Shown here: positions 9,331 to 47,573 of the stretch, piece by piece
How the letters are laid out: each line of letters begins with the position of its first letter
How positions within the stretch are numbered: the stretch's first letter is position 1
Assembly: GCA_963701965.1 (NCBI GenBank)
Contig: OY969695.1
Coordinates: 2,560,001 to 2,624,000, forward strand
Source of the DNA: an uncultured Gemmatimonadales bacterium
Lineage (GTDB): Bacteria; Gemmatimonadota; Gemmatimonadetes; Gemmatimonadales; Gemmatimonadaceae
Length of the DNA: 64,000 bases
Direction of reading: 5' to 3'
The notes under the pieces: generated by a model
Seen by the model: the letters and a program-made list of their open reading frames with translations, nothing else
Told to the model about the DNA's origin: nothing
Database searches by the model: none
Program-made: the position numbers and the translations under genes

Positions 9331-10059
9331 GTGCGCGTCTCCGTGTTCGATTACGGCGCCGGCAACTTGCACTCGTTGTGCAAGGCGCTCGAGGCGCCCG
9401 GGATCTCGGTGGGGATCGAGACCGACCCGATGCAAGCGCTCGCCGCCGACGCGCTCGTCCTGCCCGGCGTCGGCGCATTTCCCACCGCCGCCGAGCGGCT
9501 GGCGCCCGGCCGGCTGGCCGTCGCCGATGCGCTGGCCTCGGGGATGCCATGCCTGGCGATCTGTCTCGGGATGCAGCTCTTGTTCGACGACAGCGAGGAA
9601 GGCGAGGGTGAGGGCCTGAGCGTGATTGCCGGCCAGGTCACGCGGCTGGTGTCCCGCCGCGTGCCCCATATCGGCTGGAGCGCGTTGGAGCTCGCGGAGC
9701 GGGAGGATCCCGGCTCAGCCGGGATCAGTCCAACCGACCCCGGATCTCGCGACGCGGCGCGGCGCAGGGATCCCGGCGCAGCCGGGATCAGTCCAACCGA
9801 CCCCGGATCTCGCGACGCGGAGCGTCGCAGAGATCCTTTGTTCGTCGCGTCGGGGTTGGACGTCGCGTATTTCGCCCACAGCTATGCGTGCCGGCCGTCG
9901 GACGCCAAGCTCGTGACCGCGTGGACCACGGAGGGCGATGATCGTTTCGCGGCGGCGATCCGTTGGCGCAACGTCTTGGGAGTCCAGTTTCATCCCGAGA
10001 AGAGCTCGGCGGCTGGCGTGCGATTCGTGCGCGGATTTCTGGCGCGGGCGGCGGCGTGA
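9331..10059 (+). CDS. hisH: Imidazole glycerol phosphate synthase glutaminase subunit, with a 42-aa in-frame repeat insertion
   Basis: DYGAGNL, LPGVGAF, ICLGMQLL, VPHIGW, QFHPEKS. GTG start. Confidence 0.95.
   Translation: MRVSVFDYGAGNLHSLCKALEAPGISVGIETDPMQALAADALVLPGVGAFPTAAERLAPGRLAVADALASGMPCLAICLGMQLLFDDSEEGEGEGLSVIAGQVTRLVSRRVPHIGWSALELAEREDPGSAGISPTDPGSRDAARRRDPGAAGISPTDPGSRDAERRRDPLFVASGLDVAYFAHSYACRPSDAKLVTAWTTEGDDRFAAAIRWRNVLGVQFHPEKSSAAGVRFVRGFLARAAA
9706..9831. repeat. Two tandem 63-bp double-hairpin units inside hisH
   Basis: Second unit reads GATCCCGGCGCAGCCGGGATCAGTCCAACCGACCCCGGATCTCGCGACGCGGAGCGTCGCAGA. GATCC recurs at 9832. Same unit as at 47086-47526. Confidence 0.95.
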
Positions 10060-10769
10060 TTGTGCTACCGGCGGTCGACCTGCGCGGCGGCGCCTGCGTC
10101 CAGCTCATCGGCGGATCGTACGATCACGAGCGCATTCGCCTGAGCGATCCGGGTGCGGTCGCCCGGACGTGGCAGGACGTGGGATTCCGACAGCTGCACT
10201 GTGTCGATCTCGACGCGGCCACGGGCCGGGGATCGAATGAGGGCGTCGTTCGCGAGATTCTCTCGATCACCGACTTCGAGGTCCAGGTGGGCGGCGGGGT
10301 CCGCGACGATGGACGCATCGAGGATCTTCTCGCGGACGGTGCCCGCCGCGTGATCGTGGGCACGCGCGCGCTCGAGGACGGGGCGTGGCTGGATGAGATG
10401 GCGGCGCGATTCCCGGACGAGCTGATCGTGGCGGCCGACGTGTTCGACCGGCGGGTCGTGACCCGCGGATGGACGCGCGCGCTGCCGGTCGACATTCTCG
10501 ACGCGATCGAAGAGTTGAACGCGCTGCCGTTGGCGGGGATCCTGGTGACGGCGGTCCACCGCGAGGGACAGCTCCAAGGCACGGACCTGCCACTCATGGA
10601 AGACGTCGCCGAAGCCGCGGCCTATCCCGTGTACGCGGCGGGCGGCATCACGACGGTGCACGATCTCCGGGCCTTGGCCAGTCGTGGCGTGGCCGCCGCG
10701 ATCATCGGCACGGCCCTCTATACCGGCGCGATCGACCCCCACGCCACCGCAGCGGAGTTTGGCGAATGA
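10056..10769 (+). CDS. hisA: ProFAR isomerase
   Basis: VLPAVDLRGGACVQL, LHCVDLDAA, QVGGGVR, AAGGI, GTALY. Confidence 0.95.
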   Translation: MIVLPAVDLRGGACVQLIGGSYDHERIRLSDPGAVARTWQDVGFRQLHCVDLDAATGRGSNEGVVREILSITDFEVQVGGGVRDDGRIEDLLADGARRVIVGTRALEDGAWLDEMAARFPDELIVAADVFDRRVVTRGWTRALPVDILDAIEELNALPLAGILVTAVHREGQLQGTDLPLMEDVAEAAAYPVYAAGGITTVHDLRALASRGVAAAIIGTALYTGAIDPHATAAEFGE

Positions 10770-11299
10770 CCACTGTCACGCGCGAGACCAAGGAAACCCG
10801 GATCCAAGTCCGGATCGAGAAGGCCCGCCCCGGTGCCGTGGAGGTCAGCGCGGTCACCGGCGAACCGTTCCTGGACCACATGTTGGTGACGTTCGCCCAC
10901 TACGCGGCGCTCAACCTGCACATGACGGCGGCGGGGGATCTGCGGCATCACCTGATCGAGGATACGGCGATCGCGATCGGGCAAGCGATCGCGCTCGTCG
11001 CGCCGCCGGGCGCGGCCCGCTACGCGGATCGCACGATCCCGATGGACGACGCCCTGGTGCAGGTGGCGCTCGATGTCGGCGGGCGGCCGTACTACGACGG
11101 CAAGGTGCCGAGCGCGCTCTACAATCATTGGTTCCGCTCCTTCGCCGACAACGCCCGCAGCACGCTCCACGTGCGCGTGCTGCGGGGGCACGACCGGCAT
11201 CACATTGTCGAGGCGGCGTTCAAAGCATTGGGACTGGCGCTGCGCGACGCGCTCGTGGATACCGGCGCCGTCATGAGCATCAAGGGTGCCGTGCAGTGA
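10766..11299 (+). CDS. hisB: Imidazoleglycerol-phosphate dehydratase
   Basis: RETKET, FLDHML, GDLRHHLIED, PMDDAL, DRHHIVEAAFKA. Confidence 0.96.
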   Translation: MTTVTRETKETRIQVRIEKARPGAVEVSAVTGEPFLDHMLVTFAHYAALNLHMTAAGDLRHHLIEDTAIAIGQAIALVAPPGAARYADRTIPMDDALVQVALDVGGRPYYDGKVPSALYNHWFRSFADNARSTLHVRVLRGHDRHHIVEAAFKALGLALRDALVDTGAVMSIKGAVQ

Positions 11300-12069
11300 T
11301 GCGTCGCATCATCGTGTGTCTCGACGTTGATGCCGGGCGGGTCGTCAAAGGCGTGCAATTCGAGGCGTTGCGCGATGTCGGCGATCCCGCGTCGCTCGCC
11401 GAGCGCTACGAGGCGGACGGGGCCGACGAGATCGTCTTTCTCGACATCTCGGCGTCGGCCGAGGGGCGGGCGACATTGCTCGACGTGGCCCGCCGGACGG
11501 CGGAGCGACTCTTCGTGCCGCTGACGATCGGTGGCGGCATTCGATCGGCCGACGACGTCGGCCGGGCGCTGCGCTCGGGGGCCGACAAGGTCAGCATCAA
11601 CTCCGCCGCCGTGGAGCGGCCGGTCGTCCTCGGCGAGGTGGCCGAGCGATTCGGATCGCAGTGCGTGGTGGCCAGTATCGACGCGAAATACGACGAGACG
11701 TTCGCCGCCGACGGACGTCCGCCGTGGCGCGTGTACGTCCACGGCGGACGCACGCCGACGGGCCTCGACGCGGTAGGATGGGCGCGCATGTGCGTGACGG
11801 CGGGCGCCGGCGAGATCCTGCTCACGAGTATCGATCGCGATGGGGCGCGCACGGGGTACGATTTGGCGTTGACGGCGGCGGTCACGGCCGCGGTCGATGT
11901 GCCGGTGATCGCGTCCGGCGGCGCGGGGAATCCCGAGGACGTGTGCCAGGTGCTGAGCGAGGCGCAGGCGGACGCCGCGCTCGTCGCCGGCATCGTGCAC
12001 GATGGGGTCACCACGGTCGGTGCCATCAAAGCCGCCGTCGCTTCCGCGGGGATCCCATGCCGGCGATGA
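11299..12069 (+). CDS. hisF: Imidazole glycerol phosphate synthase cyclase subunit
   Basis: CLDVDAGRVVKG, GADEIVFLDI, GGGIRS, GEILLTSIDRDG, ASGGAG. Confidence 0.97.
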   Translation: MRRIIVCLDVDAGRVVKGVQFEALRDVGDPASLAERYEADGADEIVFLDISASAEGRATLLDVARRTAERLFVPLTIGGGIRSADDVGRALRSGADKVSINSAAVERPVVLGEVAERFGSQCVVASIDAKYDETFAADGRPPWRVYVHGGRTPTGLDAVGWARMCVTAGAGEILLTSIDRDGARTGYDLALTAAVTAAVDVPVIASGGAGNPEDVCQVLSEAQADAALVAGIVHDGVTTVGAIKAAVASAGIPCRR

Positions 12070-12826
12070 GCCTGCTGCACGCGGTCGCCGAGCTGGCGCA
12101 GCTCGTTGGTGATACGGCGCTCCAACACTTCGGCAACGCCGATCTCGCGGTGGAGACCAAGGCGGACGGGTCGCCGGTGACGATCGCGGACCGGAACGCC
12201 GAGGCAAAAGCCCGCGAGTGGTTGGCGCGGCGGTTCCCCGACGACGGCATCATCGGCGAGGAGTTCGGCGCCGAGCGGTCCGGGGCGCGGCGGCGTTGGA
12301 TCATTGATCCCATCGACGGCACGAAATCTTTCGTGCGCGGCGTGCCGCTGTGGGCGACGCTCATCGCCGTCGCCGAGGAGGACACCGTGCTGGCGGGCGC
12401 CGTTCACTGCGCCGCGGCGGGCGAGTTGGTCGCGGCCGCGCTGGGCGAGGGCGCGTGGTGGAACGGCTCCCGGTGCGCCGTGTCGTCGGTCGCCAATGTG
12501 GCGCAGGCGACGATGTTGACGAGCGGCGATCGGTTCGACGGGTATCCCGAGCGCCGGGCGCGGTGGACGACGTTCACGGATGCCGCCGCGGTGTACCGGA
12601 CCTGGGGCAATGGATTCGGTTACCTGATGGTCGCCACGGGGCGCGCCGAAGTCATGGCCGACAGCGCCCTGCAACCGTGGGATGCGGCGGCGCCGTACGC
12701 GATCGTCACCGAGGCCGGCGGCCAGTTTGTGTCGTGGGCCGGAGTGGATACGGCGTTCGGCGGAAACGGGATCGCCACCAACATGGCGCTGGCGCCCGCG
12801 GTGCGCGCGGCGTTGCTGGATCGGTG

Positions 12827-12827
<1 letters not shown>
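12066..12827 (+). CDS. hisN: Histidinol-phosphatase, inositol monophosphatase family
   Basis: KADGSPVTIAD, IIGEE, WIIDPIDGTKSFVRG, PWDAAA; located inside the his operon. Confidence 0.9.
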
Positions 12828-15958
<3,131 letters not shown>

Positions 15959-15965
15959 CGGCGCG

Positions 15966-17148
15966 TCAGCGCTTGAGGCGCTTCATGCCGTTGCCCCACA
16001 ACAGGCCGATCCGGGCCGAGATCGCGGCGTAGAGCATCGCCATCCCGATGCCCTGCGCGAATGTCCCGGCGCTTTCCGTCGGTCCCCAGAACACGTATCG
16101 CCAAGGGCCGAGCGGCTGGTTGTACTCCCACTGGTCGGCCGCGAAGAAATAATTGCGGGCGGCCGGTGTGAGCATGAAGTCCGCGAAGAACCACTCGACG
16201 GCCAGGAGCACGGCGACGAACGCCACCCCGAGGACGGCCGCGAGCTGCCAGTCGCGCCCCGGCCCGATCCGGCGCATCAGTACATCGATGACGACGGCCG
16301 GGACGACGAGGAGCAGCGGAAAGAACGGCGGCACCATGTGCGTGACGAGAATGGTAGATCGGCGCCAGCTTGGGCGTGGCCGGAAACGCCTCCAACGTCC
16401 ACATCATGATGAGCACGATACCCATGTAGATCGCCGCCGTGACGGTGGCCGGCCATTTGAGCCGTCCGGCCCGCGCGAACGCGATCAAAAAGATGGGAAA
16501 CACGGCGCCCAGCACCTTGTAGGCGGACGCCGCGTGCATGCGGTTGGGCGCCGCCGCGTATTGCATGATCAGCGTCGCGATCATGGTGATGAGGATCCCG
16601 CCGGCCAGCGCGTAGCTCAGCGCGTATGGGCGCACATCATCGTCCTTGGCGCGATTCTGCGCCGCCAGCGCCATGAGCATGGCGCCGACCTGGACGGCGA
16701 CCATGCCGGTCGCCAGCACCATGTGCGGCGGGCTCACGATCTTGACGTCGAGCCCGTACGCGTTGTGCCACCAGTCGTCGAACGGTGCCGACGTGATCAT
16801 GAGGAGGGTGCCCCAAATGCACACCCAGGCGCCCAGCGGTCCGCGAAATCCCCAGAACCGCACGGTCGAGGCGCGGTCGGCGACCGAGCCGGCAAACGTC
16901 GTGCGGAGCACCAGCCAGCCGCAGGACAAGCCGGCGACCGAGGCGCCAAGCTGCTCCTCGAGATGCGGCAGGGTCCAGAACGTGTCGCGTCCCACGGTGC
17001 GGTGCCACGAGATGTCCCAGATGAGACCCGTGACAATGCACAGCGAGGAGAACATCACGGCCGCCATCGTCCACGTAAGATCGGACGCGGCAACCCGTTC
17101 CAATGCGTCGGCGCGGTAGGTCGGACCCGCGGCAAGAGTCGTCGCCAT
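15966..17148 (-). CDS. Polytopic membrane protein with two D-x3-H...H motifs; apparent frameshift near 16350
   Basis: WDISWHRTVGRDTFWTLPH and FDDWWHNAYGLDVKIVSPPH, about 9-10 TM segments. The C-terminus continues in ORF 15966..16337. Confidence 0.8.
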
Positions 17149-17194
17149 GCGATAAATGTTGCGACCGTCGCCCGGCAGCACCAGACTGTATGCA

Positions 17195-18082
17195 ATGCTC
17201 CTGCGCAATGTCTCCGATACTGCGCGCTGGGTCGCCATGTACCGGGCACTCGAGTCGGAACGTCCGGACGCGATCTTTCGCGATCCGTTCGCCCGCCGGC
17301 TCGCGGGCGAGCGGGGCGCCGAAGTGGTGCGTACGGTGCCGGGCGCGAAGCAGCTGTCGTGGCCAATGGTGGTGCGGACGGCGGTATTGGACGAGCTGAT
17401 CCAGCGTGCCGTGGCGCGCGATGGCGTCGATCTCGTGCTCAATCTCGCGGCGGGCCTCGACGCCCGACCGTACCGGCTCGCGCTGCCGCCGTCGCTCCGG
17501 TGGGTGGACGTCGACCTTCCCGAGATCCTCGCCTACAAACAGGAGATGATGAAAGGCGAGCGGCCGGCCTGCGCCCTGGAGACGATTCCGACGGATCTGG
17601 CCGACGCGGCGGCGCGCCGGGCCCTGTTCGAGCAGATCAACGCCCAAGGGCGGCGCGTGTTCGTGGTCTCGGAGGGTCTGCTCGTCTATCTCACGCGCGA
17701 GCAGGTGACGGCGCTGGCGAAGGACCTTCGCGCCGAGCCGACGTTCGAGTGGTGGGCGTTCGACCTGGCGTCGCGGGGTGTGCTGCACATGATGCAGAAG
17801 CGGTGGCAGCCGCATCTCGGCGGCGACGCCCGCATGCAATTCGCCCCAGCCGAAGGCACGGGGTTCTTCACGGCGCTCGGCTGGTGGGTGAGCGAGTTCC
17901 GGCTCACGATGACCGAGGCGCGCCGCCTGCACCGGCAAATGCGCCTGGCGTGGCTCTTCCGCCTGTTCGGCGTCCTCGACGCCCGGCGGCCACAGGAGAA
18001 ATCCCTGTGGCGCACCGGCGTGGTCTTGCTTCAGAACCCCGTGACGGCGGCGCGCGCGAGCTTGGTGGTATCGCCGACGTAG
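17195..18082 (+). CDS. SAM-dependent methyltransferase, leucine carboxyl methyltransferase-like family
   Basis: VSDTARWVAMYRA, FRDPFA, NLAAGLDARPYRL, DVDLP, SEGLLVYL. Confidence 0.9.
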   Translation: MLLRNVSDTARWVAMYRALESERPDAIFRDPFARRLAGERGAEVVRTVPGAKQLSWPMVVRTAVLDELIQRAVARDGVDLVLNLAAGLDARPYRLALPPSLRWVDVDLPEILAYKQEMMKGERPACALETIPTDLADAAARRALFEQINAQGRRVFVVSEGLLVYLTREQVTALAKDLRAEPTFEWWAFDLASRGVLHMMQKRWQPHLGGDARMQFAPAEGTGFFTALGWWVSEFRLTMTEARRLHRQMRLAWLFRLFGVLDARRPQEKSLWRTGVVLLQNPVTAARASLVVSPT

Positions 18083-21667: not shown

Positions 21668-21668
21668 G

Positions 21669-23101: not shown

Positions 23102-23121
23102 ATGATACCGCCCAATATACG

Positions 23122-29925: not shown

Positions 29926-32477
29926 TCACTCGGACACGGTCGTGAGGCAGATCTTGAAGTCGCGCTGCACGGATTCGTTGGTCATCCAGCCGCCGCGCAC
30001 GAGGGCGCGGAGAACGCGCACTTTGTCGTCGGTGGAGCTGAGCTTGGACGTAGAGCCAATGGCGGCGCGGGCGACGGTGAGGGCGCCGTCGGGATGACCG
30101 GCGGAGCGGGCCCGGGCCTCGCCGAGTACGGCGAGGAGCACGCCGGCGCGGTCCGTGTTGGAGGTCATCGTGTTGGTGGCCGCGAAGAACTCGTGGCGCA
30201 CGTCGGCGTTGGTCAGGGGGTCGAGGCCGGCGACGGTGCGGAGGACCAGGCCCTTGTCGGCGTCGGACGACATCATCGTCGCGGAGCGGAGGATCCCGGT
30301 GACCGTCGCGGCGTCGCGGGAGCCGCGGCCGAGGAGGCCGAGGAGAACGCGGCGGCGCTCGGTATCCGACGAGATGGTGTTGGTCGCGGTGAAGAACGCG
30401 CGACGCAGGGTGTCGGAGCTGCAGTAGTGTTGGGCGATCTCGAGCAGGACCGAGCGTTTGGTCGCGTCCGAGGCGATCGTGGCGACTTCGGCGGCGACAT
30501 CGGCCAGTAGTACGTCCTTTGTGGCCTTGTGGCGCGCTATTAGCTGTATACTGTCGCGATGAAGGCTCGCTAACGTGAACGTCGCCTCAACCGGGCTGAG
30601 GACGATCGTGGCGGGCTGCGGGCGCGCTACGGCGGCTTCCATCGGGTGGACCGACGCCAGGGCGAAGACCACGGTGCTGGCGGCGGCGACCGTGGTGGCG
30701 ATGCGGCGGCGACCAATGGGGTCGCGGCGCACGGCCCGATCGAGGATCGCCAGCAAGCGGCCCTCGATCTCGGTCCGGCGGGCCATCGCCAGGGCGGCGG
30801 CCGCGGGGGCGGCGGCGCCGCTCAGCGTCTGGACCAGCTCCAGCAGGTCGCCCGCGTAGCGCGACGGGCGGGCGCCGGCGCCGAGTACCAGATCGTCGCA
30901 GGCGCGTTCGCGTTCTTGGCGCATGTGGGTGGCGGCTAGCCAGGCGAGGGGGTGGTACCAGAACAGGGCGACCGCGAGTTGGCCCACGATGTGGGTCAGC
31001 ACGTCGTAGCGGTGCACATGCGCGAGCTCGTGTGTCAGCACGAGCGTCCGCCGTTCCTCATCCCACTCCGCGGCATCGGCCGGCAGGATCACCAGCGGGC
31101 GCAGGATCCCGCACGTCACCGGCACCGAGCCCGCCGCGCCGATCCGGATCGAGACCGGGCGCCGGAGGCCGAGGCCGTGCGAGATCCGCTCGGCGAGAGC
31201 CGCCCAATGCGGCTCGGCCGGGCGGGCGCGCCGGACGATCGCCCTGAGGCGCGTGATCCCCATCAGGAGGCGCGCGATGACGGCGGCGGTCCCCAGGATC
31301 TGGAACAGGATCCAGAGGCGGGACAGGAACCCGGCGAGGCGAACGGTGCCGGCGCCCGACAGCGCCAGCGGCACGTCGCCCTCTTCGCGCAGAGCTTCGC
31401 GGCCCGCGCTTCGCGCGGCCGCGGCGCGCCTTCCGACGCGCGCGGCATCCGCGTGGGCGAGCACGCGTGGTGCGTTGCTCGTGCCGCCCGGACCATCGCT
31501 CGTGGCGTTGCTCAGCGCCTTGCTCGTGCTATTGCTGGTGACGTCACTCGCAGCGTTGGTCACGGCGCCGCTGATGACGTTACTCGTGGCGTCGCCCGTG
31601 CCATAACTGGTGGCGTTGCTCACCACCTCGCTCGTGCTATTGCTCGTCGCGTTACTCGTGGCGTTGCTCATAGCGTCGCTCGCGACGTTACTCGCGGCTG
31701 CGTTACTTGCAGCTGCGTTACTTGCAGCTGCGTTACTTGCAGCTGCGTTGCTTGCAGCTGCGTTACTTGCAACTGCGTTGCTTGCAACTGCGTTGCTTGC
31801 AACTGCGTTGCTTGCAGCTGCGTTACTTGCAGTCGCGTTACTTGCAACTGCGTTGCTTGCAACTGCGTTACTTGCAGCTGCGTTACTTGCAGCCGCGTTA
31901 CTTGCAGCCGCGTTACTTGCAGCCGCGTTGCTTGCAGCCGCGTTGCTTGCAGCCGCGTTGCTTGCAGCCGCGTTGCTTGCAGCCGCGTTGCTTGCAGCCG
32001 CGTTGCTTGCAGCCGCGTTGCTTGCAGCCGCGTTGCTTGCAGCCGCGTTGCTTGCAGCCGCGTTGCTTGCAGCCGCGTTGCTTGCAGCCGCGTTGCTTGC
32101 AGCCGCGTTGCTTGCAGCCGCGTTGCTTGCAGCCGCGTTGCTTGCAGCCGCGTTGCTCCCGCCTGCATCGCCGATTGCGTCGCGCGTACCGCGCCCGTCG
32201 GCGATAGCCGACGGCGCCGGTGCCGCCGCGGGCGGGGCAGCCACCGCCGGCGCGTGAGACAGCGCGCCGAGCGCGCGAAGCGCGGCGGCGGGATGAACCG
32301 CGGGCAAGGGCACGGCCCACGTCGGGACGACCGCGGGCAGGACGGGCAGGACGAGCAGTCCGCCGAGGACCGACGCCCACACGAATGGCGCGCGGCCGCC
32401 GAGGATCTCCGGAGCACACCAATGACGGCAAAGGCGACGACGAGCAGCGCGGTCGCCCGCACGAACAAGTCAATCAT
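29926..32477 (-). CDS. M56 family (BlaR1/MecR1-like) sensor protease with a large (AASNA)n insertion; apparent frameshift near 32384
   Basis: PVTCGILRPLVILP, LTHELAHVHRYD, WYHPLAW, ERACDD. The N-terminus MIDLFVRATALL...SAAARH lies in ORF 31668..32477. Directly downstream of blaI. Confidence 0.92.
31685..32156. repeat. 15-bp tandem repeat (~31 copies) encoding AASNA/VASNA, followed by degenerate 12-bp SNAT-type repeats
   Basis: Plus-strand unit GCGTTGCTTGCAGCC with variants, homogeneous over about 31923-32156. Confidence 0.97.
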
Positions 32478-32480
32478 AGT

Positions 32481-32870: not shown

Positions 32871-32905
32871 GCTAGCTATCTAGCATCATGCTGAAAAACT
32901 AGCAA
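32869..32905. promoter_or_regulatory. Tandem palindromic operators, probable BlaI autorepression sites
   Basis: Perfect ATGCTAG-CTAT-CTAGCAT (32869-32886) touching the blaI start codon, and an imperfect ATGCTGA-AAAA-CTAGCAA (32888-32905). CTAG is otherwise rare in the window. Confidence 0.8.
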
Positions 32906-35646: not shown

Positions 35647-35665
35647 AGTAGATGGAATTTAGGCC

Positions 35666-38114: not shown

Positions 38115-38842
38115 GCCATCCACCCGTCGCGGAGCGTCACGATGCGACGGCCAGCGGCGGCGTTTTCCTCGGAGTGGGTGACCTGCACGATGGTCGTGCC
38201 GCGCGCGTTGAGCTCGCGAAAGAGGGCCATGATCTCGCGGCCCTGGCTCGAGTGGAGATTGCCGGTCGGCTCGTCGGCCAGGATCACGGCGGGCGCGGCG
38301 ATCACGGCGCGCGCGATCCCGACGAGCTGCTGTTGCCCGCCCGACAGCTGGCGGGGATAGAGATCTTTCTTGCCGACGATGCCAAACCGGTCGAGCGTGT
38401 CGGCGACCAACGCCTGCCGCTGGGCGCGCGGCACGTCGCGATACGACAGCGGGACGTCGAGGTTCTCCGCCACGGTCAGGTCATCGAGCAGGTGATACTG
38501 CTGGAACACGAACCCGATGTGGCGCTTCCCGAGCGCGACGCGGGACTTGTGGGGCAGGGCGTGCACGGCCTGGCCGGCCAGGTGGTACTCGCCGGACCAA
38601 CCCGAGTCCAACATCCCGAGGAGGTTGAGGAGCGTCGACTTGCCGGCGCCGGACGGGCCCATGATGGACACGAAATCGCCGGCGGCGATGTCGAGCGTGA
38701 TGTTGCGCAGCACGTAGGTCCGGTTGCCCCCGGCCTCGTACCACCGTTCGACTCCGCGGAGCCCGATCAACGGCTCGCCCGGCTGGGCGACCGGCGGCGG
38801 CGGCTCGACCGCCGTTTCGGTCCGTCTCGACCAGATCATCAT
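38111..38842 (-). CDS. ABC transporter ATP-binding protein (MacB/LolD type)
   Basis: GPSGAGKST, LSGGQQQ, LADEPTGNL, VTH. Confidence 0.94.
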   Translation of the reverse strand: MMIWSRRTETAVEPPPPVAQPGEPLIGLRGVERWYEAGGNRTYVLRNITLDIAAGDFVSIMGPSGAGKSTLLNLLGMLDSGWSGEYHLAGQAVHALPHKSRVALGKRHIGFVFQQYHLLDDLTVAENLDVPLSYRDVPRAQRQALVADTLDRFGIVGKKDLYPRQLSGGQQQLVGIARAVIAAPAVILADEPTGNLHSSQGREIMALFRELNARGTTIVQVTHSEENAAAGRRIVTLRDGWMA

Positions 38843-39159
38843 GTGGGGCAACCTGACGGCGGGGCGGCGCTGACGGCAAGGACCCGCGACGGGCCGTGGC
38901 CGGCCACCTGCACACAGACCGACGAGGCCAGCATGTGGCGCGAGGCGTTCACCAGGAAGATCGCCGCGAGCAGCTCGCCGATCAGGAGACCACGGCGGAA
39001 CCAGCCCCGCGGCGGCCGCACGAGCCCGACGCGGAGGTCATCGATCGCCGAGGCCACCACGGGGATCACCCCGCAGGCCACGACCAATGCCACGACCGCC
39101 ACATTGCTGAGGCGGATCGCCGACCCGGCCAACAAGACCCCGCTGATCTCTGTCATCAC
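38839..39159 (-). CDS. Small hypothetical membrane protein
   Basis: 106 aa with two hydrophobic segments, filling the operon gap with an ATGA overlap. Confidence 0.5.
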   Translation of the reverse strand: MMTEISGVLLAGSAIRLSNVAVVALVVACGVIPVVASAIDDLRVGLVRPPRGWFRRGLLIGELLAAIFLVNASRHMLASSVCVQVAGHGPSRVLAVSAAPPSGCPT

Positions 39160-39182
39160 CCGCCCCCGCCCCCAAGTCTCTG

Positions 39183-39934
<752 letters not shown>

Positions 39935-39938
<4 letters not shown>

Positions 39939-41179
39939 TCTACCCGGACCTTGTTGACGTTGTCCCACGCGGACATATCGGAAATGATCACATGGTCGCC
40001 GGCCACGAGTCCCTGCAGGACTTCAATAGTGGTGACCGAACTCTTGCCGAGCTTCACGGTGCGACGCACCGCAGTCCTGCCATCGGGTCCTATCGTGAAC
40101 AACGTGACGGTGCCGTCGGGCTGGCCGAACGCCGGGCGACCCACGTACAGCACGTTGTCCAACCGCTCGATCTCGATCGTGCCGTCGACGCTGAGATCGG
40201 CGCGGGCGCCGTCGGGAAGCTTGCCCTCGAGCGAGACGTCGACGCCCACAGTGCCATTCTGCACGGACGGATCGATGCGCTCGACGCGTCCCGGCACGGT
40301 GCCATTGCGCGTGTCCACGGAGACGACTTGGCCGACGATGACGTCCTTGGCCTGGGTCTCGGGCACGTTGAGCACGGCCTTGAGTTTCCCGGGCTGGGCG
40401 ACGCGCGCCAGCATGAGCCCCGGAGTCACCCATTGTCCGAGCAGCAGCGGCAGCTCCTGCAACACGCCGGGCTCGCCGGCCGTCACATGCATCGACTGGA
40501 TGCGCCCTTGTTGGAACCGGGAGATCGCCTTGAGGTGCTCGACTTGCTCGGTCTGCAGCGCAATCTGCTGGTCGATCGATGAGGTCAACACCGCGAGGCG
40601 GTCGCGCTCGATCTGGAGCTTGGTCTTCGTGGACGTGGCGGCATCGCGGGCCCGGGCCAGCTCGTTGCTGCCGGCCAACCCTTTCCCATCAAGCGTCTGA
40701 AAGACGGTCTGGTTGCGCGCGGCCTCATTGGCGTCCATCTCCGCGGTCGATACCGCGGACGCCTGCGTGAGGCGCTGATTCTCCAATGATTGCTTGAGCG
40801 CGACTAGCGCGCCCTCGGCGACCGAGAGTTGCCGTTCGGCGTCCAAAGCCTCGAGCTGCACGTCGGGGTTCGATAGCTGCGCGATCACGGTCTCAGGCGT
40901 CACGGTCACGCCGGCTTTGATCGGCAGGGTCTCGACGCGCCCCGCGGTCACAGCCGCGATGATGCGGACGTGATCGGGCAGCAGCGTGCCTGGGGCGCGC
41001 ACTTGCCTCAGCATGGTCCCGCGGCGCACCGAGTCGATCCACAGCGTGCTTCTCTCCACTGATGGTGGACGGGATTCCAGTCGGCTGACCGACACGGAAA
41101 GCGCGGTGATCGCGACGACGGCGCCCGCAATGATCAGATACCGGCGGCGGGATTTTGGTTTGCTACGAACGATGTCCAT
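39935..41179 (-). CDS. Periplasmic adaptor (HlyD/MacA-like) subunit
   Basis: N-terminal TM, lipoyl half-motifs around a coiled coil, RIDPSVQNGTV, C-terminal GLVAGDHVIISD. Confidence 0.92.
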
Positions 41180-41192
41180 GGCCACCTGTATA

Positions 41193-41308
41193 TGGAAGTC
41201 GTGTGCCGGCCGGGGTTGGCGGCTAATGTGTTGATTTTATTGCGGTTGCATGATGAGCAACCGGATGGTGTTCACCCGACGCTGGGAACGACCGTCCCAG
41301 AATCGGAC
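41193..41308 (-). promoter_or_regulatory. sigma54-type promoter architecture: -24/-12 element, IHF site, upstream activator palindrome
   Basis: CGGCACACGACTTCCA (41208-41193; imperfect -12). Exact IHF consensus AATCAACACATTA (41236-41224). GTCC-N7-GGAC palindrome (41294-41308). The operon encodes its own NtrC-like activator. Confidence 0.65.
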
Positions 41309-41321
41309 AGGCGCCGGCCGG

Positions 41322-41741
41322 CTAACGCCGGGCGCGAACGCCGGCGTAGAGCGTGAGCGCGACCAACACGGCGAGGCCAATAAACACGATCGCGATCATG
41401 TGCGAGGCCAGGCCGAGGGCGGCACGCATGGCCGCGACCTGGATGATGGACATGAACGTGACGGTGCCAAAGGCAACGATCTCGACCGACTCACGGGCCC
41501 GGGGATCGTTGGCCCGCCGGGGGTCGAGGCGGACGGCGATCTGCATCGAGACGAAGATGAGCGCGGTGACCACTGGCAGGAACCACGCGCCGAACTCCCG
41601 GCTTGCCCAACGGGTCGGCTGGCCATCGAGACCCCACTTCATGGGGACGCGCGCGGGCAGGCTCGGGTACACGGAGAGCGTGTACACGACAGCCACGGCG
41701 AGCGCCGCGACGGGCACCAGGGTTCTCAGAAGTCGGCCCAT
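41322..41741 (-). CDS. DUF1648 (SdpI N-terminal-like) membrane protein
   Basis: YPSLPARVPMKWGLDGQPTRW plus four TM segments. Confidence 0.82.
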   Translation of the reverse strand: MGRLLRTLVPVAALAVAVVYTLSVYPSLPARVPMKWGLDGQPTRWASREFGAWFLPVVTALIFVSMQIAVRLDPRRANDPRARESVEIVAFGTVTFMSIIQVAAMRAALGLASHMIAIVFIGLAVLVALTLYAGVRARR

Positions 41742-41789
41742 ATCTTTTGGACGACCTTAGCGTACAAACCGATTCAGGGAGACTGCATT

Positions 41790-42215
41790 ATGCCGACACG
41801 TCACGCGACCGCCACGTGGGAAGGGGGTCTGCAAAAAGGAAAGGGATCGTTCTCCGGCGAGAGCGGCGCCATTGGGGCGTCGTACTCGTTCGGTTCGCGG
41901 TTCGAGAATGCCAAAGGCTCCAACCCCGAAGAGCTGCTCGCGGCCGCCGAGGCCGCGTGCTATAGCATGGCGCTGGCCGCCGGGTTGGAGCAAGCCGGCA
42001 CGCCGGCGACGCGGGTGGACACGCGCGCGACCTGCACCATTGAGAAACAAGGCGCCGGGTTCACCATCACCGGCATCACGTTGGTCGTGAAGGCCAGCGT
42101 CCCCGGCATCGATGCCGCCAAGTTCAAGAAGGCGACCGAGGACACCAAGGAGAACTGTCCGGTATCCAAGGCGCTCAAGGCCGTGCCCATCACGCTGGAC
42201 GCGCAGTTGGTGTAA
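41790..42215 (+). CDS. osmC: OsmC family peroxiredoxin
   Basis: ATWEGGL..GKG, YSFGSRFE, NPEELLAAAEAACYSMAL, CPVSKAL. GGGAG RBS. Confidence 0.95.
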   Translation: MPTRHATATWEGGLQKGKGSFSGESGAIGASYSFGSRFENAKGSNPEELLAAAEAACYSMALAAGLEQAGTPATRVDTRATCTIEKQGAGFTITGITLVVKASVPGIDAAKFKKATEDTKENCPVSKALKAVPITLDAQLV

Positions 42216-42245
42216 GCGGGCGGCCGGAGTAGCCGCGACCGGTGA

Positions 42246-42692
42246 TCAGTGGTTCGCCACCAGCGTGGCGCGCAGCATGGTCACCGTGTCCGCGGTGTCG
42301 AAGGGGAACCCCGGCGCCGGACCGGTGCTCTGCCGGATCAGCATGTTGAAGTGATTCGAGTCGCCGCCAAACGCGCCGCGCACCTGCAGCGTGTCGTGGC
42401 TCGCGTCAGCGATGCTGAGATTGACCGGCATGATCAACGGGCAGGGACAGTTGCAACCGCAACCCGCGACTCCCGTGTTGCGGCCCGCGATACTCAAGGC
42501 CATCGCGCCGATGGACCCTGTCCCGGCGATCGAGTCGCCGGTCTGAATGAGCGTGAGTGTGAGGACGCGCTGGGCCGTGTCGGTCGCGCTCCACATGCCG
42601 TTCACTGACGGACCACGCGCGGTCGCCGAGGTCGGGGCGCTCGAGCAGGCGGCGACGAGGATCAGGGCGGAGACTACGAGACACAAGCGCAA
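42246..42692 (-). CDS. Hypothetical lipoprotein
   Basis: VAAC lipobox, GMW..TLTLIQTGDSIAGTG beta-rich fold. GGAGG RBS before the TTG. Confidence 0.7.
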   Translation of the reverse strand: MRLCLVVSALILVAACSSAPTSATARGPSVNGMWSATDTAQRVLTLTLIQTGDSIAGTGSIGAMALSIAGRNTGVAGCGCNCPCPLIMPVNLSIADASHDTLQVRGAFGGDSNHFNMLIRQSTGPAPGFPFDTADTVTMLRATLVANH

Positions 42693-42704
42693 GCGAGCCC
42701 TCCT

Positions 42705-43181
42705 TTATGCCTGGATGGACCCCCGCCGGTCGGATCGGGTCACGGGCGCGGCCGCGCATGTCCGGTCCAGCCAGCGGCGAAAAGTGTAGTCGGCGCCAAA
42801 GTAGGGCAGGACGTAGGCCACGGACCAGAGCGCGATCTGGGCATTGATCAATCGTCCATGCGGCCACCGATCGAGCCCGATGAGGATCAAGAGCGCGCTC
42901 AGGGTCAGGACGAGGCCGAGGAGGGCCGTGAACCGGAGCTCGTAGCGGACCCGCCAGGGCTCGCCGGCGTTGGCGCCAATGGTGACGCGTCCGGACGAGA
43001 TGGCCAATGACACACCTCCGGCGGCCAGCCGCCAGGGCGGCGGCATCCAGAAAGCGAACCCTCCAATGACGGAGTGGTCGACGCGGGCGCCGATCGCGGA
43101 CAGTTCGTGTCCGACGTGGAACAGAATCTCCCGCGTCTGGCGTGCCGTGGGCTGCGGATCGAGCGGAAGGGATCTCACCAC
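42705..43181 (-). CDS. Hypothetical membrane protein
   Basis: 158 aa with two C-terminal TM segments. Start uncertain. Confidence 0.6.
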   Translation of the reverse strand: MVRSLPLDPQPTARQTREILFHVGHELSAIGARVDHSVIGGFAFWMPPPWRLAAGGVSLAISSGRVTIGANAGEPWRVRYELRFTALLGLVLTLSALLILIGLDRWPHGRLINAQIALWSVAYVLPYFGADYTFRRWLDRTCAAAPVTRSDRRGSIQA

Positions 43182-43191
43182 GGCGCCGCCG

Positions 43192-44110
43192 TCATGACAG
43201 AATCAACTCCCGCCGGCCGAGGGCCGCTGGCGCCGCACGCCGGCCGGCGAGGACGGCGAGCGCGATCAGCGTGAGCACGTACGGCAACGCGAGAAAGAGC
43301 TGGTAGGGGGCGTGCCAGCCCATAGCCTGAAACAGGAACTGGAGCGCCGAGGCCGCCCCAAAGAGGAGCGCGCCGATCGCCGTGCCCACGGGGTGCCAGC
43401 GGCCGAGCGCAACGACCGCAATGGCAATGAACCCGCGGCCGGCCGACATGCCCTCGGCGAACGTCCCGACCTGCGCCAGCACGAGCGTGCCGCCGGCGAG
43501 TCCGCCCATGACGCCGCCAAAGACGACCGCGAGGAGTTGAATGCGGCGCGCGTCGAGTCCCGCGGCGCGGGCCGCGTCGGGATTCTCGCCGACGGCGCGG
43601 AGCGCCAGGCCGGCCCGCGTGCGGTACATCGCGTACGCCATCAACGGAACCAAGAGGTAGACGGCATACGTGATGGCCGGCTGGTTGAAGAGCGAAGGTC
43701 CAATGACCGGTATACGCGCCAGCACCGGAATCGCGGTGGCGGGCTCGGTCGGCGTGGACAGTGCGGCGCCAGCGGCGCCGAACGCGCGCCGGTAGAGCGT
43801 GCCCGTGAGACCCAGGCCGAGGAGCGTGATCGCCGTCCCCGTGATGATCTGGTCGGCGCGCAGCACGACAGCAAATCCCGCGAAGAGCAGCGCCACCAGG
43901 GCGCCGCCGGCGGCCGCCGCCGCGAATCCCGTGGCGACGCCCACCGCCTGCGCCCCGACGAGCGCGGCGAAGGCGCCGACGATGATCGATGCCCTCGAGT
44001 CCGACATTAATGACTCCGGCGCACTCGGCCACTGTTTCGCCGAGCGCGGCCAGCGCCAGGGGCGTGGCCGTGCGGATCGTCGCGGCGAGAAAATCAGTGA
44101 GCGCGTGCAC
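43192..44110 (-). CDS. Nucleoside/simple-sugar ABC transporter permease; apparent frameshift near 43987
   Basis: ATPLALAALGE..AGVINVGLEG in one frame, then GLALRAVGENP and AGRGFIAIA in the next. Confidence 0.9.
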
Positions 44111-45131
44111 GCCAGCGGGACCCCGGAATGAGAAAGACGAGGATGAGCACCGCTTCGACGACCGAGACCACGACGGAGGGTACGCCGGCATCGCGCTGCA
44201 TGGCACCGGCGCCGGCCTCCAGCGCACCGAACAGGATGCCCGTGAGGATCACGCCATAGGGGGAGAGGCCGGCGAGCAGCGCGACCGCGATGGCCGTGTA
44301 GCCATAGCCAGGCGAGATGTTCTCGTACAGCGCATAGGTCACGCCGGTCACCTCGACCGCGCCGGCCAGGCCAGCGAGCGCCCCGCTCACCAGGAACGCG
44401 CGCGTTGTGGTGCCCGGCACGTCGATCAACCCGGCGCTCGCGGCCGCGAACGGATTCGCACCGGCGGCCCGGAGCCGAAATCCGGGCGCGGTCTCCCGCA
44501 ACACCCAGCCGGCGGCGAGCGCCGCGACGAGCGCGATCAGGAATCCCGCGTGCAGACGCGACCCCGGGACGAGTCCGCGCAGGAGGCGCGGCATCGTGGC
44601 GATGGCGGGGAGGTTCGCGGTCTGGGGATAGATGTGCGTGGGCTCCTGCAGCGGACCGCGCACGAGCCAGCCGACGGCGTCGAGCGCGATGAAGTTGAGC
44701 ATGATCGTGCTGATGACTTCGAGCACGCCGAATCGGCGCCGGAGCCACTCGGCGATGCCGGCCCATCCGGCGCCGGCCAGGGTACCCAGAACGAGCGCCA
44801 CGGGCACGGCGACTGCCGTGTGGGCGGCGGCCGTGATGCCGTACGCCGCGGCGGCCGTGGCACCGGCGAGGAACTGCCCCTCGGCGCCGATGTTGAGCAC
44901 ATTGGCGCGAAAGGCGATGGCCACGCCGAGGCCCGTGAGGATGAGCGGCGTGGCGCGCACCAGGGTGGCCGAGACGATCACGTAGGGCGAGCCGAACGAT
45001 CCGCGCCACAGGGCGCGAAGGGCGGGGGCCGGGGCGTAGCCGGTCAGCGCGACTACGATGACCAGCGCGAGGACCGCGATGGCCGGGCGGAGCAGGACGT
45101 CACGAAGCGCGGCCGGCGTGAGGGCCGCCAT
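44094..45131 (-). CDS. Nucleoside/simple-sugar ABC transporter permease
   Basis: ATPLILTGL, NIGAEGQ, EVISTIMLNFIA, GYGYTAIAVALL. Confidence 0.92.
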   Translation of the reverse strand: MAALTPAALRDVLLRPAIAVLALVIVVALTGYAPAPALRALWRGSFGSPYVIVSATLVRATPLILTGLGVAIAFRANVLNIGAEGQFLAGATAAAAYGITAAAHTAVAVPVALVLGTLAGAGWAGIAEWLRRRFGVLEVISTIMLNFIALDAVGWLVRGPLQEPTHIYPQTANLPAIATMPRLLRGLVPGSRLHAGFLIALVAALAAGWVLRETAPGFRLRAAGANPFAAASAGLIDVPGTTTRAFLVSGALAGLAGAVEVTGVTYALYENISPGYGYTAIAVALLAGLSPYGVILTGILFGALEAGAGAMQRDAGVPSVVVSVVEAVLILVFLIPGSRWRARAH

Positions 45132-45150
45132 CAGGATCGCGGTCGGGAAA

Positions 45151-45598
45151 TCAGCGGGCCGTGCGCGGCAGCCATCGGGAAGCGCCCTCGGCGTCGCGGC
45201 GAATGATCGCCTCGACCTGGGCGCCAATGGCGTGGCCGGTGAGGCGGACGACCGGATCGTCGGGTGAGCGCTTGGATGGCGCTCGACGACCGGCCGCGCA
45301 TCACGACGGAGAACTGGCCGAGGAACGCCGAGCCATCGCATTCGATCACGATGTTCGGGGGCGCCAGCACCTCGACGTTCGACAGGACGCCGACGATCTC
45401 GATCTCGTGCACTCCGGGCTCGACCGTCGCGTGGCGGAGGTCAATGGTCACTTGCCCCAGAACAGCGACGACCCGCATGTGCCGCGGCAGCGTCCACGGG
45501 CCGCTCAGCTTGTGGTGCGAGAGGAATGTCACGACGCCGCGCGTCCGTCGGACCGGCGGCGTGGGATGCGCGATCGGGGCGAGGTCGTGGGGCTCCAC
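45151..45598 (-). CDS. LiaF/DUF1707-associated beta-rich domain protein; apparent frameshift near 45274
   Basis: GPWTLP..VVAVLGQVTIDLRHA, VECDGSAFLG-like segment, continuing as PVVRLTGHAIGAQVE in another frame. TGcTACATT box 6 nt before the GTG. Confidence 0.7.
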
Positions 45599-45629
45599 GA
45601 CCAGAATGTAGCAGAAATGCGCGGTCGGT

Positions 45630-47573
45630 TTAACTGAGACCCAGCATGACCCGCCCCACGAATTCGCGATCGAACGGGGCGGGGGTATCGCCGGCGCGCG
45701 CGCGGGGGATTTCGCGGACGGCGCCGCGGGCGACCACGAGGACGCGGTCGGCGAGATCCAGCACCTCGTCGAGATCGCTGGAGTGCCACACGATCGCGGT
45801 GCCGCGATCGCGCGCCGCGAGCAGCGCATCGCGGAGGCCGGCGGCGGCCTGGACGTCGAGTCCGCGCGTGGGATTCGAGGCGATGAGCGCGGCAGGTGTA
45901 TCATCGATCTCGCGCGCCAGGACGAGACGCTGCTGGTTGCCGCCGGACAGCGACCGCGCCGAGCTCCCGGGGCCGCCGGTCCGGATATCGTAGCGGGCCA
46001 GCAGGTCGGCGGTGGCCTGTCGGACGGCCGCCCACCGGGCGCGACCGCGGCGCCGGCCCGCGCCCCGCAGGTACACGTTCTCGTAGAGCGGAAAATCGGC
46101 GATGAGGCCGTCGCGCTGGCGGTCCTCGGGGATGAACCCGACCTCCGACGGCACCGTGAGCCGGCCTCCCGTCACCGTCGTCCGACCAGCGAGCGCGCGG
46201 AGCAAGGGCACCTGTCCCTGACCCTCGACCCCCACGACGCCGACGATCTCCCCGGCGTGCACGGCAAAGGTGGCCGCGCGCACGGGACCAATGTCGATCG
46301 CGTCGGCCCGGATCACGACGGGACCAGGCGTGCCCGCGCTCCGGCGCGCGCCCGGCTTTGGCGCGGCCGCGCCGAGCATGGCGTCGACGATTGTGGCTTC
46401 GTCGACAGCCGCCGCGGGCGCGGCGAGCACAGTCCGGCCGCGCCGCAAGACGGTGATGTCGTCCGCCACGCTGAGTGCGTCGCCGAGCTTGTGGGTGATG
46501 AGCACGACGGCGCAACCACGGTCGGCGAGCCGCCGCAGCCACCGCAGCAACTGGGCGGCCTCTTCGGGCGCGAGGACGGCCGTCGGCTCATCGAGGATGA
46601 GCACGCGGGCATCCCGCGCCAATGCCTTGATGATCTCAACGCGCTGCTGGGCGGCGACCGAGAGATCGCCGACACGGGCATTGGGATCGACCCCAATGTC
46701 GTACGGCAGCGGCTCGGCGACATCGAGGCGCATCTCGCGGGCGACGTTCGTCACGACTGTCGCTGCATCACGCGCATTAAAACGCCAGTCGCGCGTCAGT
46801 GTACCGCCGCTGGCAAGAGCGACGTTCTCGGCCACTGTCATATTCTCGACCAGCGCATAGTGCTGGTGCACCATGCCGAGGCCCGCCGCGATGGCATCGG
46901 ACGGGGCACCGAACCGGCGCGGCTGTCCGTCCACGAAGACCGCCCCGGCGTCGGGCCGGATCATCCCGAATGCCACGCGCATGAGCGTGGTCTTCCCGGC
47001 CCCGTTTTCGCCGAGGAGCGCGTGCACGGTGCCCGCGGCCACGTCAATGCGCGCCCCATCGAGCGCGAGAATCCCGGTGTCCCTGGATCTCGGCTCACCC
47101 GGGATCAGTTCAACCGACCCCGGATCTCGCGACGCGGAGCGTCCCAGGGATCCCGGCGCAGCCGGGTCCAGTCCAACCGACCCCGGATCTCGCGACGCGG
47201 AGCGTCCCAGGGATCCCGGCGCAGCCGGGTCCAGTCCAACCGACCCCGGATCTCGCGACGCGGAGCGTCCCAGGGATCCCGGCGCAGCCGGGTCCAGTCC
47301 AACCGACCCCGGATCTCGCGACGCGGAGCGTCCCAGGGATCCCGGCGCAGCCGGGTCCAGTCCAACCGACCCCGGATCTCGCGACGCGGAGCGTCCCAGG
47401 GATCCCGGCGCAGCCGGGTCCAGTCCAACCGACCCCGGATCTCGCGACGCGGAGCGTCGCAGGGATCCCGGCGCAGCCGGGTCCAGTCCAACCGACCCCG
47501 GATCTCGCGACGCGGAGCGTCGCAGAGATCCGAACCGTTTCGTGATGTCGTGGAGCTGGAGCGCCGCGGTCAC
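45630..47573 (-). CDS. Nucleoside/sugar ABC transporter ATP-binding protein with a ~147-aa in-frame repeat insertion
   Basis: ITKRFG, then the insert, then ILALDG. GENGAGKTT, LDEPT, ITHKL, IPEDR, LSGGNQQ, PTRGLD. Confidence 0.93.
   Translation of the reverse strand: MTAALQLHDITKRFGSLRRSASRDPGSVGLDPAAPGSLRRSASRDPGSVGLDPAAPGSLGRSASRDPGSVGLDPAAPGSLGRSASRDPGSVGLDPAAPGSLGRSASRDPGSVGLDPAAPGSLGRSASRDPGSVGLDPAAPGSLGRSASRDPGSVELIPGEPRSRDTGILALDGARIDVAAGTVHALLGENGAGKTTLMRVAFGMIRPDAGAVFVDGQPRRFGAPSDAIAAGLGMVHQHYALVENMTVAENVALASGGTLTRDWRFNARDAATVVTNVAREMRLDVAEPLPYDIGVDPNARVGDLSVAAQQRVEIIKALARDARVLILDEPTAVLAPEEAAQLLRWLRRLADRGCAVVLITHKLGDALSVADDITVLRRGRTVLAAPAAAVDEATIVDAMLGAAAPKPGARRSAGTPGPVVIRADAIDIGPVRAATFAVHAGEIVGVVGVEGQGQVPLLRALAGRTTVTGGRLTVPSEVGFIPEDRQRDGLIADFPLYENVYLRGAGRRRGRARWAAVRQATADLLARYDIRTGGPGSSARSLSGGNQQRLVLAREIDDTPAALIASNPTRGLDVQAAAGLRDALLAARDRGTAIVWHSSDLDEVLDLADRVLVVARGAVREIPRARAGDTPAPFDREFVGRVMLGLS
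47086..47526. repeat. Seven tandem 63-bp double-hairpin units, same family as in hisH
   Basis: Units start at 47086, 47149, 47212, 47275, 47338, 47401 and 47464. GATCC recurs at 47527. Confidence 0.97.

Follow-up and report, generated by a model that had tools for sequence, protein, structure and literature searches.

A probable genus-restricted family of gene-less double-hairpin DNA elements carried in frame in genes of a Gemmatimonadaceae bacterium

The 63-bp repeat that interrupts hisH and an ABC ATPase gene in the 64,000-nucleotide stretch analysed here (the window) very probably represents a subtype of a double-hairpin DNA element that carries no gene and is restricted to one genus. The 5.1 Mb genome contains 53 loci with 83 units of this family, and the hisH and ATPase arrays are two of these loci. 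The dispersed palindrome family proposed in a sequence-only reading of the window was therefore borne out and is far larger than the two known arrays; the 63-bp unit, taken there for the family itself, is real but is merely one subtype, and about 60% of the 53 loci lie outside genes. All members follow the same layout, in which hairpin 1 is followed by a 12-nt core (WGTYCAACCGAC), a spacer or arm, and hairpin 2. Genome-wide, 77 units of hairpin plus core were found, compared with 0–8 for 15 shuffled cores. Co-variation was observed in the stem of hairpin 1 (pair 3, TA 26/GC 20; pair 5, TA 30/CG 14; pair 7, GC 34/CG 13), pairing being part of the search filter, and GNA loops were present in 37 of 49 hairpins 1. 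Based on the boundaries, we distinguish subtype A (63 bp, GATC-bounded, 27 loci) and subtype B (CTAG-bounded, 15 loci); in-frame forms of 66, 72 and 75 bp were found in congeners.

The features of the two loci are listed in Table 1. The earlier description of them stood up in most respects. Two units are present in hisH (9706–9831) and seven in the ATPase gene, the arrays have the same DNA orientation in host genes on opposite strands and encode the peptides claimed, and each is closed by the repeated GATC(C/T), namely GATCC at 9832–9836 and 47527–47531. The claim that internal ATPase units are stop-free in all six frames holds for all five (47149–47463); the hisH array has stops in two of six frames. 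The two hairpins with GNA triloops were confirmed in hisH unit 2 (−27.3 kcal/mol, z −6.3, as good in 0 of 200 shuffles) but are lost in the internal ATPase units, which fold weakly (−16.3, z −1.5).

Table 1. Features of the element and its host genes in the window
Feature	Position	Strand	Remark
hisH, host gene, 242 aa	9331..10059	+	Pfam GATase
hisH unit 1, 63 bp, 21 codons, slightly eroded	9706..9768	+	
hisH unit 2, hairpin 1: 9-bp stem, GCA loop	9769..9789	+	
hisH unit 2, conserved core, WGTYCAACCGAC consensus	9790..9801	+	
hisH unit 2, hypervariable 3-nt spacer	9802..9804	+	
hisH unit 2, hairpin 2: 14-bp stem, 1-nt bulge, GGA loop	9805..9836	+	end (9832–9836) is the duplicated target
ABC ATPase, host gene, 647 aa if GTG start	45630..47573	-	
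Eroded stretch, 12 extra bp	47068..47085	+	probably an eighth unit that collapsed
Seven 63-bp units, read antisense	47086..47526	+	directly after conserved K-R-F-G turn
Closing GATCC	47527..47531	+	duplicated target

In HisH, the catalytic Cys79 and His-Pro-Glu 221–223 are intact. The suggestion that the insert sits in a tolerant loop agrees with the length of this loop, which varies from 9 to 89 aa across homologues (92 parsed of 120), and with the pLDDT above 90 of the model core. Compared with congeners, the net insert in the ATPase is 151 aa (7 × 63 + 12 bp). The GTG start of this gene overlaps the TGA of the upstream gene, while the public protein (P0121, 470 aa) begins after the array; the element thus misleads gene callers. 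The AlphaFold model of the ATPase is uninformative for the N-terminus, since the alignment put the N-termini of homologues on repeat residues.

A search of relatives gave positive results in five of five congeners and in none of 35 other genomes, and 295 other Gemmatimonadaceae genomes showed background level alone. The element was thus found here in one Gemmatimonadaceae genus only. No matches were obtained in viral contigs, nor in metagenomes with the strict 63-bp pattern. Empty orthologous sites, which the sequence-only reading named as a check, were found for nine hosts (hisH, ABC ATPase, pyruvate kinase, DUF58, PaaD, PD40, Lhr, a TMEM260-like gene and imuB). At the threshold applied, congeners yielded no orthologues of AlkA/ogt, and those of PhzF (38–46% identical) are too distant to define a junction. 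The net insertion of the 63-bp subtype is 63 bp, or 21 codons, and direct repeats of 4–6 bp at the element ends represent a target-site duplication. As the congeners are just 70–85% identical to this genome, exact junctions in it are blurred. Presence at orthologous positions is patchy, and one site holds the element in both orientations.

Tandem expansion after insertion, also anticipated, is seen at one site with a single copy in L023 and two copies in L100. In total, 11 arrays with locus-specific periods and variants were found; the six with a period of 63 or 69 all lie in genes, and those of 62, 65, 66 (with stops), 68 and 68 lie outside them. In one DNA read run covering 6% of words, only short contigs were obtained, none of which spanned an array; two of them carry variant copies of the unit. 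The lack of spanning reads in this run would suit a reading of the arrays as misassemblies or as strictly local VNTRs, which we consider scarcely credible given the 53 dispersed loci, the locus-specific periods of the 11 arrays, the frame-dependent survival and the dimer and monomer found in independent assemblies.

Survival in frame and in either orientation was confirmed by the tally of coding and intergenic copies: subtype A is in frame at 19 of 27 loci and uses five of six frames, and both copies in the frame that normally hits TGA carry a variant that removes it. This coding share comes near the expectation set by the available targets, 86% of the genome's RGATCY sites being located in genes. 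Subtype B is found inside genes at none of 15 loci (A versus B, Fisher p 8e-6). Hosts of inserts include HisH, pyruvate kinase, Lhr, AlkA, Ogt and ImuB. Most coding copies are in sense orientation (15/19, p 0.02), and overlap with a stop or start codon is frequent among intergenic copies. Both features could point to a functional RNA structure at gene ends that controls stability or translation, with coding copies as by-products, and the excess of G-T over A-C pairs on the top strand of subtype A hairpin 2 (17 versus 5) agrees with this. We nevertheless regard such a role as very unlikely, because hairpin 1 has the opposite ratio (3 versus 6), because orthologous presence is patchy and both orientations occur at one site, and because C(GNA)G triloops are a feature of DNA mini-hairpins. 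Moreover, an Rfam scan of 11 loci gave no match above chance, its two weak matches being below the gathering score and away from the element.

The arm 3′ of the core is often the reverse complement of the adjoining host DNA, a point absent from the sequence-only reading. In the outer stems of subtype B, 42 of 56 pairs are Watson–Crick, compared with 17.3 after permutation (maximum 37 in 20,000), and at least three arm matches are present in all 11 parsed loci. For subtype A spacers, no clear match to the host was seen (29/81 versus 22.1 expected, p 0.054), and in DUF58 the arm stays consensus even though the host target deviates. At gdhA, five empty alleles contain the 3′ arm as host coding DNA, and three filled alleles carry its inverted copy as the 5′ arm; in L136, the arm mirrors a synonymous change of the host. 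Where one site holds copies in both orientations, each agrees with its own flank, over 8 and 7 nt. A stricter test against empty alleles gave a weak signal, with 42 versus 35.5 (p 0.02) for eight hand-picked one-off pairs and 46 versus 42.7 (p 0.11) for nine subtype A pairs.

It could be argued that the arm becomes complementary only after insertion, by quasi-palindrome template switching in replication and perhaps by selection for a longer stem. According to PMC5941160, template switching perfects inverted repeats in bacteria, and, as here, the fold-back turns one arm into a copy of the other; the paper treats it as an error in replicating pre-existing repeats and not as an insertion step. 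The mirrored change in gdhA fits this explanation, as do the least diverged 63-bp copies (hisH, ATPase and pyruvate kinase), in which 0, 1 and 0 of 3 spacer bases are paired, compared with the matched arms of the more diverged subtype B. However, matches of 6–8 nt occur where the flanks of empty relatives are still 94–98% (L072) or about 80% (L129/L085) identical, and the matches at all parsed subtype B loci would require many separate stem-extending events, directed outward and not to internal correction. On balance, later template switching seems rather unlikely to us.

The genomes were also searched for a mobiliser. A link to RAYT/IS200 transposases, suggested earlier, was not supported: the Y1 domain PF01797 was absent from all six genus genomes with working controls, five of these being drafts 67–95% complete. 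TnpB (PF07282) was likewise found in none of six, and the Y2 transposase of IS91-type rolling-circle elements (PF04986) in none of six with a control that was silent in all. IS110 (PF02371) in three of five genomes, DDE (PF01609) in two of five, DUF772 in one of six and reverse transcriptase (PF00078) in one of six (this genome only) had no element adjoining. GIY-YIG genes are present in five of five genomes (PF01541 search alone), including a 510-aa frame located roughly 1 kb from an array; counterparts of similar size in congeners have no adjoining element, and a small single-domain gene flanked by the element was not found in these five genomes with PF01541. No recurring mobile gene was seen among proteins adjoining the loci (67 against NCBIfam and 27 against Pfam, overlapping sets, of 91 called). 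At the 53 loci, GTAG precedes hairpin 1 in three, CGTC occurs in one and the SRM consensus in none.

These results bear on a possible mobilisation in trans, in which a REP/BIME-like or SRM-like element would be the substrate of a HUH enzyme (RAYT/TnpA-REP) or an Ssn GIY-YIG nuclease that was lost or has diverged beyond detection. In PMC3733652 and PMC8266576, GTAG/CGTC REP/BIME elements share with ours a short folded ssDNA hairpin adjoining a conserved motif, clusters, overlap with TAG stops and intragenic copies, and PMC11893778 describes Ssn nucleases acting on NTS/SRM hairpin repeats as ssDNA, with sequence and structure both conserved. Unlike REP/BIME, the present element has no GTAG/CGTC tag, carries its 12-nt motif 3′ of hairpin 1 and occurs in a genus in which no Y1 transposase was detected; CGTC REPs have an 8–9-bp stem, a 4–5-nt loop and head-to-head dimers, compared with a 3-nt loop and a head-to-tail arrangement here, the latter being called rare for REPs in PMC3733652. 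With neither the SRM consensus nor an adjoining small GIY-YIG gene, mobilisation in trans by either enzyme appears improbable.

A MITE of a DDE insertion sequence, recognised by the terminal inverted match of about 10 bp in the 63-bp subtype, is even harder to accept. This match is 10/10 in four of 24 subtype A loci and 7–9/10 in most others, and short direct repeats flank the element as in a MITE. However, the match arises from the 3′ arm common to both hairpins, and other subtypes lack it. No autonomous IS with element-like ends was found among repeats of at least 250 bp; the multi-copy IS of the genome, which we take to be IS3-, IS21-, IS256- and IS30-like from their protein sequences, have unrelated ends, and the sole IS5-type gene survives just as a broken piece whose ends do not match. 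Apart from the partial repeat in subtype A, the match to an IS or MITE end that was named earlier as a refutation was not found among these; we judge a MITE origin very remote.

Several other resemblances were rejected. Resemblances to the IS200/IS605 right end and to IS1182/IS5 ends were not supported. An IS200/IS605 PATE does not fit, as TnpA/TnpB and lagging-strand bias were not detected and target duplications are present. Integron attC was considered because the core fits RYYYAAC; by eye, no partner box follows the core. Replichore strand bias was not seen (26/53 loci), and Mantel tests for local hopping were not significant (overall distance–similarity rho 0.11, p 0.20). Of the 15 loci of one hairpin 1 variant, 13 cluster within 500 kb close to the GC-skew origin (p 5e-5), the variant having been picked after the cluster was seen.

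Based on the above results, we suggest, with moderate confidence, that a gene-less element inserts, in folded single-stranded form, into short targets that resemble it and become duplicated, and that a facultative fold-back forms the arm during copying. Annealing of a nicked target end to the 3′ end of the element would account for the likeness between the two, the targets being RGATCY in the 63-bp subtype and CTAG in subtype B; the element would next be copied by a polymerase. Read-through of hairpin 2 would leave the arm consensus, as in most 63-bp copies; alternatively, the new strand may fold back on the inner hairpin, copy 4–15 nt of host and rejoin at the core, as in older and one-off copies. 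The timing of the fold-back, during insertion copying, is put forward only tentatively. Later growth of the arrays would probably come from slippage or unequal exchange between direct repeats at the element ends. Copies that are stop-free and a multiple of three would survive in genes, and the remaining ones would persist between genes, often on a TAG stop. More speculatively, there may be a 55–75-bp class of elements using target-primed copying with programmed fold-back, in which each new copy makes an inverted duplicate of its landing site and so spawns subtypes, the 63-, 66-, 72- and 75-bp forms invade proteins in any frame, and the enzyme is unrecognised or a host polymerase or nuclease, not a known transposase.

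Coding palindromes as a phenomenon are not new, since in-frame REP clusters of 43–82 aa are reported in PMC3733652 and Rickettsia RPEs are also known. Thus, for the "undescribed" coding palindrome family claimed earlier, novelty of the phenomenon itself does not stand. As PMC10969869 and PMC3733652 summarise the work of Ogata (2000 and 2002), RPEs are likewise dispersed gene-less palindromes in frame in unrelated genes, and the related CGTC class has no known dedicated mobiliser. By description, RPEs are about 150 bp with one conserved peptide, whereas the present unit is 63 bp, uses five frames, forms tandem arrays of up to 151 aa, has a host-complementary arm and no CGTC tag, and resides in a free-living, high-GC host. 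PARCEL (PMC2996958) likewise builds tandem in-frame peptide arrays out of palindromic DNA repeats, but PARCELs are 25-residue amphipathic domains of dedicated ORFs; here, housekeeping enzymes are interrupted and intergenic copies occur too.

A free-living bacterium thus carries DNA-structure-derived inserts of 21–151 aa in housekeeping enzymes. Its filled and empty alleles, its opposite-orientation copies at one site and its host-specific arms make a copying mechanism testable in this element family, which bears on the movement of RPE-like and CGTC-type palindromes.

Based on a re-reading of the window, which is contained in one 5.12-Mb contig of 67% GC, both arrays have the positions, encoded peptides and closing GATC repeats described in the sequence-only reading. 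Six-frame openness was found, as claimed, in the internal ATPase units only; two of the hisH array's frames are interrupted by stops. The proposed double-hairpin fold was recovered for the second hisH unit (z -6.3) but not for the internal ATPase units, which no longer fold in this way (z -1.5).

The element consists of hairpin 1, a 12-nt core, a spacer or arm, and hairpin 2. Scanned for the core preceded by a 9-bp hairpin, the genome yielded 77 units, compared with 0-8 for 15 shuffled cores. Adding six profile hits gave 83 units at 53 loci, with a few further variant-core copies excluded from these counts. Sorting by eye assigned 27 loci to subtype A, which measures 63 bp and has GATC ends, and 15 to subtype B, which has a 66-68-bp period and CTAG ends; the other 11 are one-off forms. 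The core is almost without variation; hairpin 1 stems co-vary, base pairing being itself a filter criterion of the search, and 37 of 49 hairpin 1 copies have GNA loops. Neither strand bias nor an overall Mantel signal was found among the loci, except that one hairpin 1 variant is clustered near the origin. The window holds parA/parB.

Locations of arrays, clusters and other repeats (G000:C1, contig of this genome)
Feature	Location	Strand	Details
hisH array	window 9706-9831		2 x 63-bp units
ABC ATPase array	window 47086-47526		7 x 63-bp units
BlaR1/M56 peptidase ORF	window 29926-32382	-	degenerate 12/24-bp repeats follow the (AASNA)n stretch
(AASNA)n repeat	window 31700-32157		15 bp, 30.5 copies, in frame, N-terminal part of the BlaR1/M56 ORF
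Short tandem repeat	window 58014-58094		20/41 bp, immediately ahead of gene end
Clustered hairpin 1 variant	G000:C1:2261575-2732788		13 of 15 loci within 500 kb, around GC-skew minimum (~2.69 Mb)
Mobile-gene cluster	G000:C1:215000-255500		broken IS5-type fragment, two IS110 matches, two reverse transcriptases
Uncounted variant-core copies	G000:C1:339316, 380456, 395810, 576727, 896646, 1082008, 2076852, 4814455		hairpin plus core

The element pattern was present in all five congeners and in none of 35 other relatives. With a looser pattern, 9 of the 295 other family genomes had one hit each, compared with 8 for a reversed control; no other result depends on the unpublished G153, one of these nine. 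In a collection of 185,579 genomes, all 17 hits were titled Gemmatimonadaceae or Gemmatimonadales. Sixteen metagenome loci carry the element, and none was found in the viral contigs searched.

Coding status was assigned from a purpose-made gene caller (84% coding), Pfam matches and frame inspection. Nineteen of the 27 subtype A loci lie in frame inside genes, one is ambiguous and seven are intergenic or unresolved; no copy at these 27 loci visibly splits a gene. Nine of the in-frame hosts were compared with congeners, and an empty orthologous site was seen for every one: hisH, the ATPase, pyruvate kinase, DUF58, PaaD, PD40, Lhr, a TMEM260-like gene (a gap of exactly 63 bp) and imuB (four units). 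Other in-frame hosts (SNF2-like helicase, TraG, metallo-beta-lactamase, AlkA, Ogt, abhydrolase and four more) were assigned from open frames and domain matches. Coding in either orientation also holds: of the 19 copies, 11 share one sense frame, four share a second, and the remaining four are read antisense in three different frames. One frame would ordinarily run into TGA, and the two copies read in it both have a variant lacking that stop. Because the share of sites inside called genes is 86% for RGATCY and 42% for CTAG, subtype A is only slightly depleted in genes (p 0.05) and subtype B strongly so (0/15, p 3e-4). The six arrays with a period of 63 or 69 all lie in coding sequence, and the remaining five do not. 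Tandem expansion comes after insertion, as had been supposed.

Congeners have forms of their own: compared with this genome, the net length is 75 bp at four sites of G003 and 66 bp at one of G004, and L151 carries 72 bp relative to L233 (L handles denote sequences of other assemblies); the frame was read through in L065 and L151 only. In G002, a one-off copy (L027) sits in frame and antisense within an oxidoreductase-like ORF; its hairpin 2 measures 19 bp and has a 3' arm readable as host codons, and a search for a confirming orthologue found none. By eye, an insertion of net 59 bp close to a gene junction (L078 versus L235) appears to give the downstream gene a new ATG.

The HisH insert loop sits between two blocks alignable to solved HisH, and the model is confident in the core (mean pLDDT 90) but not at residues 131-160. 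Of 120 homologues, 92 could be parsed, and in these the loop past the P-H-I-G-W motif spans 9-89 residues. Different in-frame inserts occupy it in HisH of G004 (L048) and 11 metagenome relatives (P0009, P0011, P0026, P0034, P0040, P0043, P0047, P0064, P0080, P0085, P0087). Several of these inserts have peptides resembling those of hairpin 2 (DAERR, DAKRR), and the G004 insert DNA contains a GAA-triloop hairpin; these inserts are possibly relics of the same superfamily. In the ATPase, the insert directly follows K-R-F-G, which we take to be the nucleotide-stacking A-loop. In an alignment of 90 proteins, at least 90% conserve this motif. The GTG start codon shares bases with the TGA of the upstream gene, but the public protein starts past the array. 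As the model is silent on whether the first strand rejoins the domain, the array may impair this gene.

Possible analogues include cyanobacterial small dispersed repeats and alphaproteobacterial RIME/Bru-RS elements. In-frame palindromes have already been described as Rickettsia palindromic elements (RPEs; PMC10969869), and intragenic REP clusters span 43-82 aa (PMC3733652). A RAYT/IS200 link was not supported: the tags and enzymes of REP/RAYT (PMC8266576) are matched by neither the element nor the genomes searched. The same holds for those of SRM/Ssn (PMC11893778), and PARCEL (PMC2996958) differs from the family. An Rfam scan gave no description of the family, a literature search mostly outside subscription papers returned no account of it or of repeats of this sort with arms copied from the host, and passages of a genome-language-model preprint leave Gemmatimonadota unmentioned. 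The family is real, a variant of the RPE/REP kind and apparently undescribed so far. No mobilising enzyme was found across six genomes of the genus, five of them drafts, and the mobile-gene cluster contained no convincing element copy.

In subtype B, the stretch between core and CTAG is largely complementary to the flank outside the element: 42 of 56 bases pair, compared with 17.3 with flanks permuted (11 script-parsed loci; 3970009 was unparsed, and the script classed three of the 15 by-eye loci elsewhere). At gdhA, the 3' arm corresponds to the final host codons read antisense, and five empty alleles (L195-L198, L200) contain it; the three filled alleles (L046, L132, L136) have in addition hairpin 1, the core, an inverted copy of 13-15 nt and the loop. 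The L136 arm mirrors a synonymous host change. The penultimate codon is TAT, matching the arm, in all filled alleles and TAC in all empty ones. L132 shows a 6-bp duplication (net 61 bp) and clusters with three empty genomes (support 99), which implies recurrent gain or clean loss. The L072 arm has a 6-nt match to the flank of its empty relative, L129 and L085/L090 occupy one site in opposite orientations with each arm matching its own-side flank (8 and 7 nt), and the arms of L074 and L131 partly match orthologues in this genome. Counting against a host-copied arm are the marginal match of subtype A spacers (29/81 versus 22.1) and the DUF58 copy, whose target is deviant yet whose arm does not follow. 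Exact-match tests on empty alleles were weak, both for eight pairs picked after inspection, one with a misplaced window (p 0.02), and for nine subtype A pairs (p 0.11).

Target-primed copying of the element with optional fold-back, our proposed mechanism, would account for the short duplications, the targets like the element's 3' end and the optional inverted host copies. Later template switching (PMC5941160) would explain a host-complementary arm almost as well. The host-templated arm is the aspect worth pursuing.
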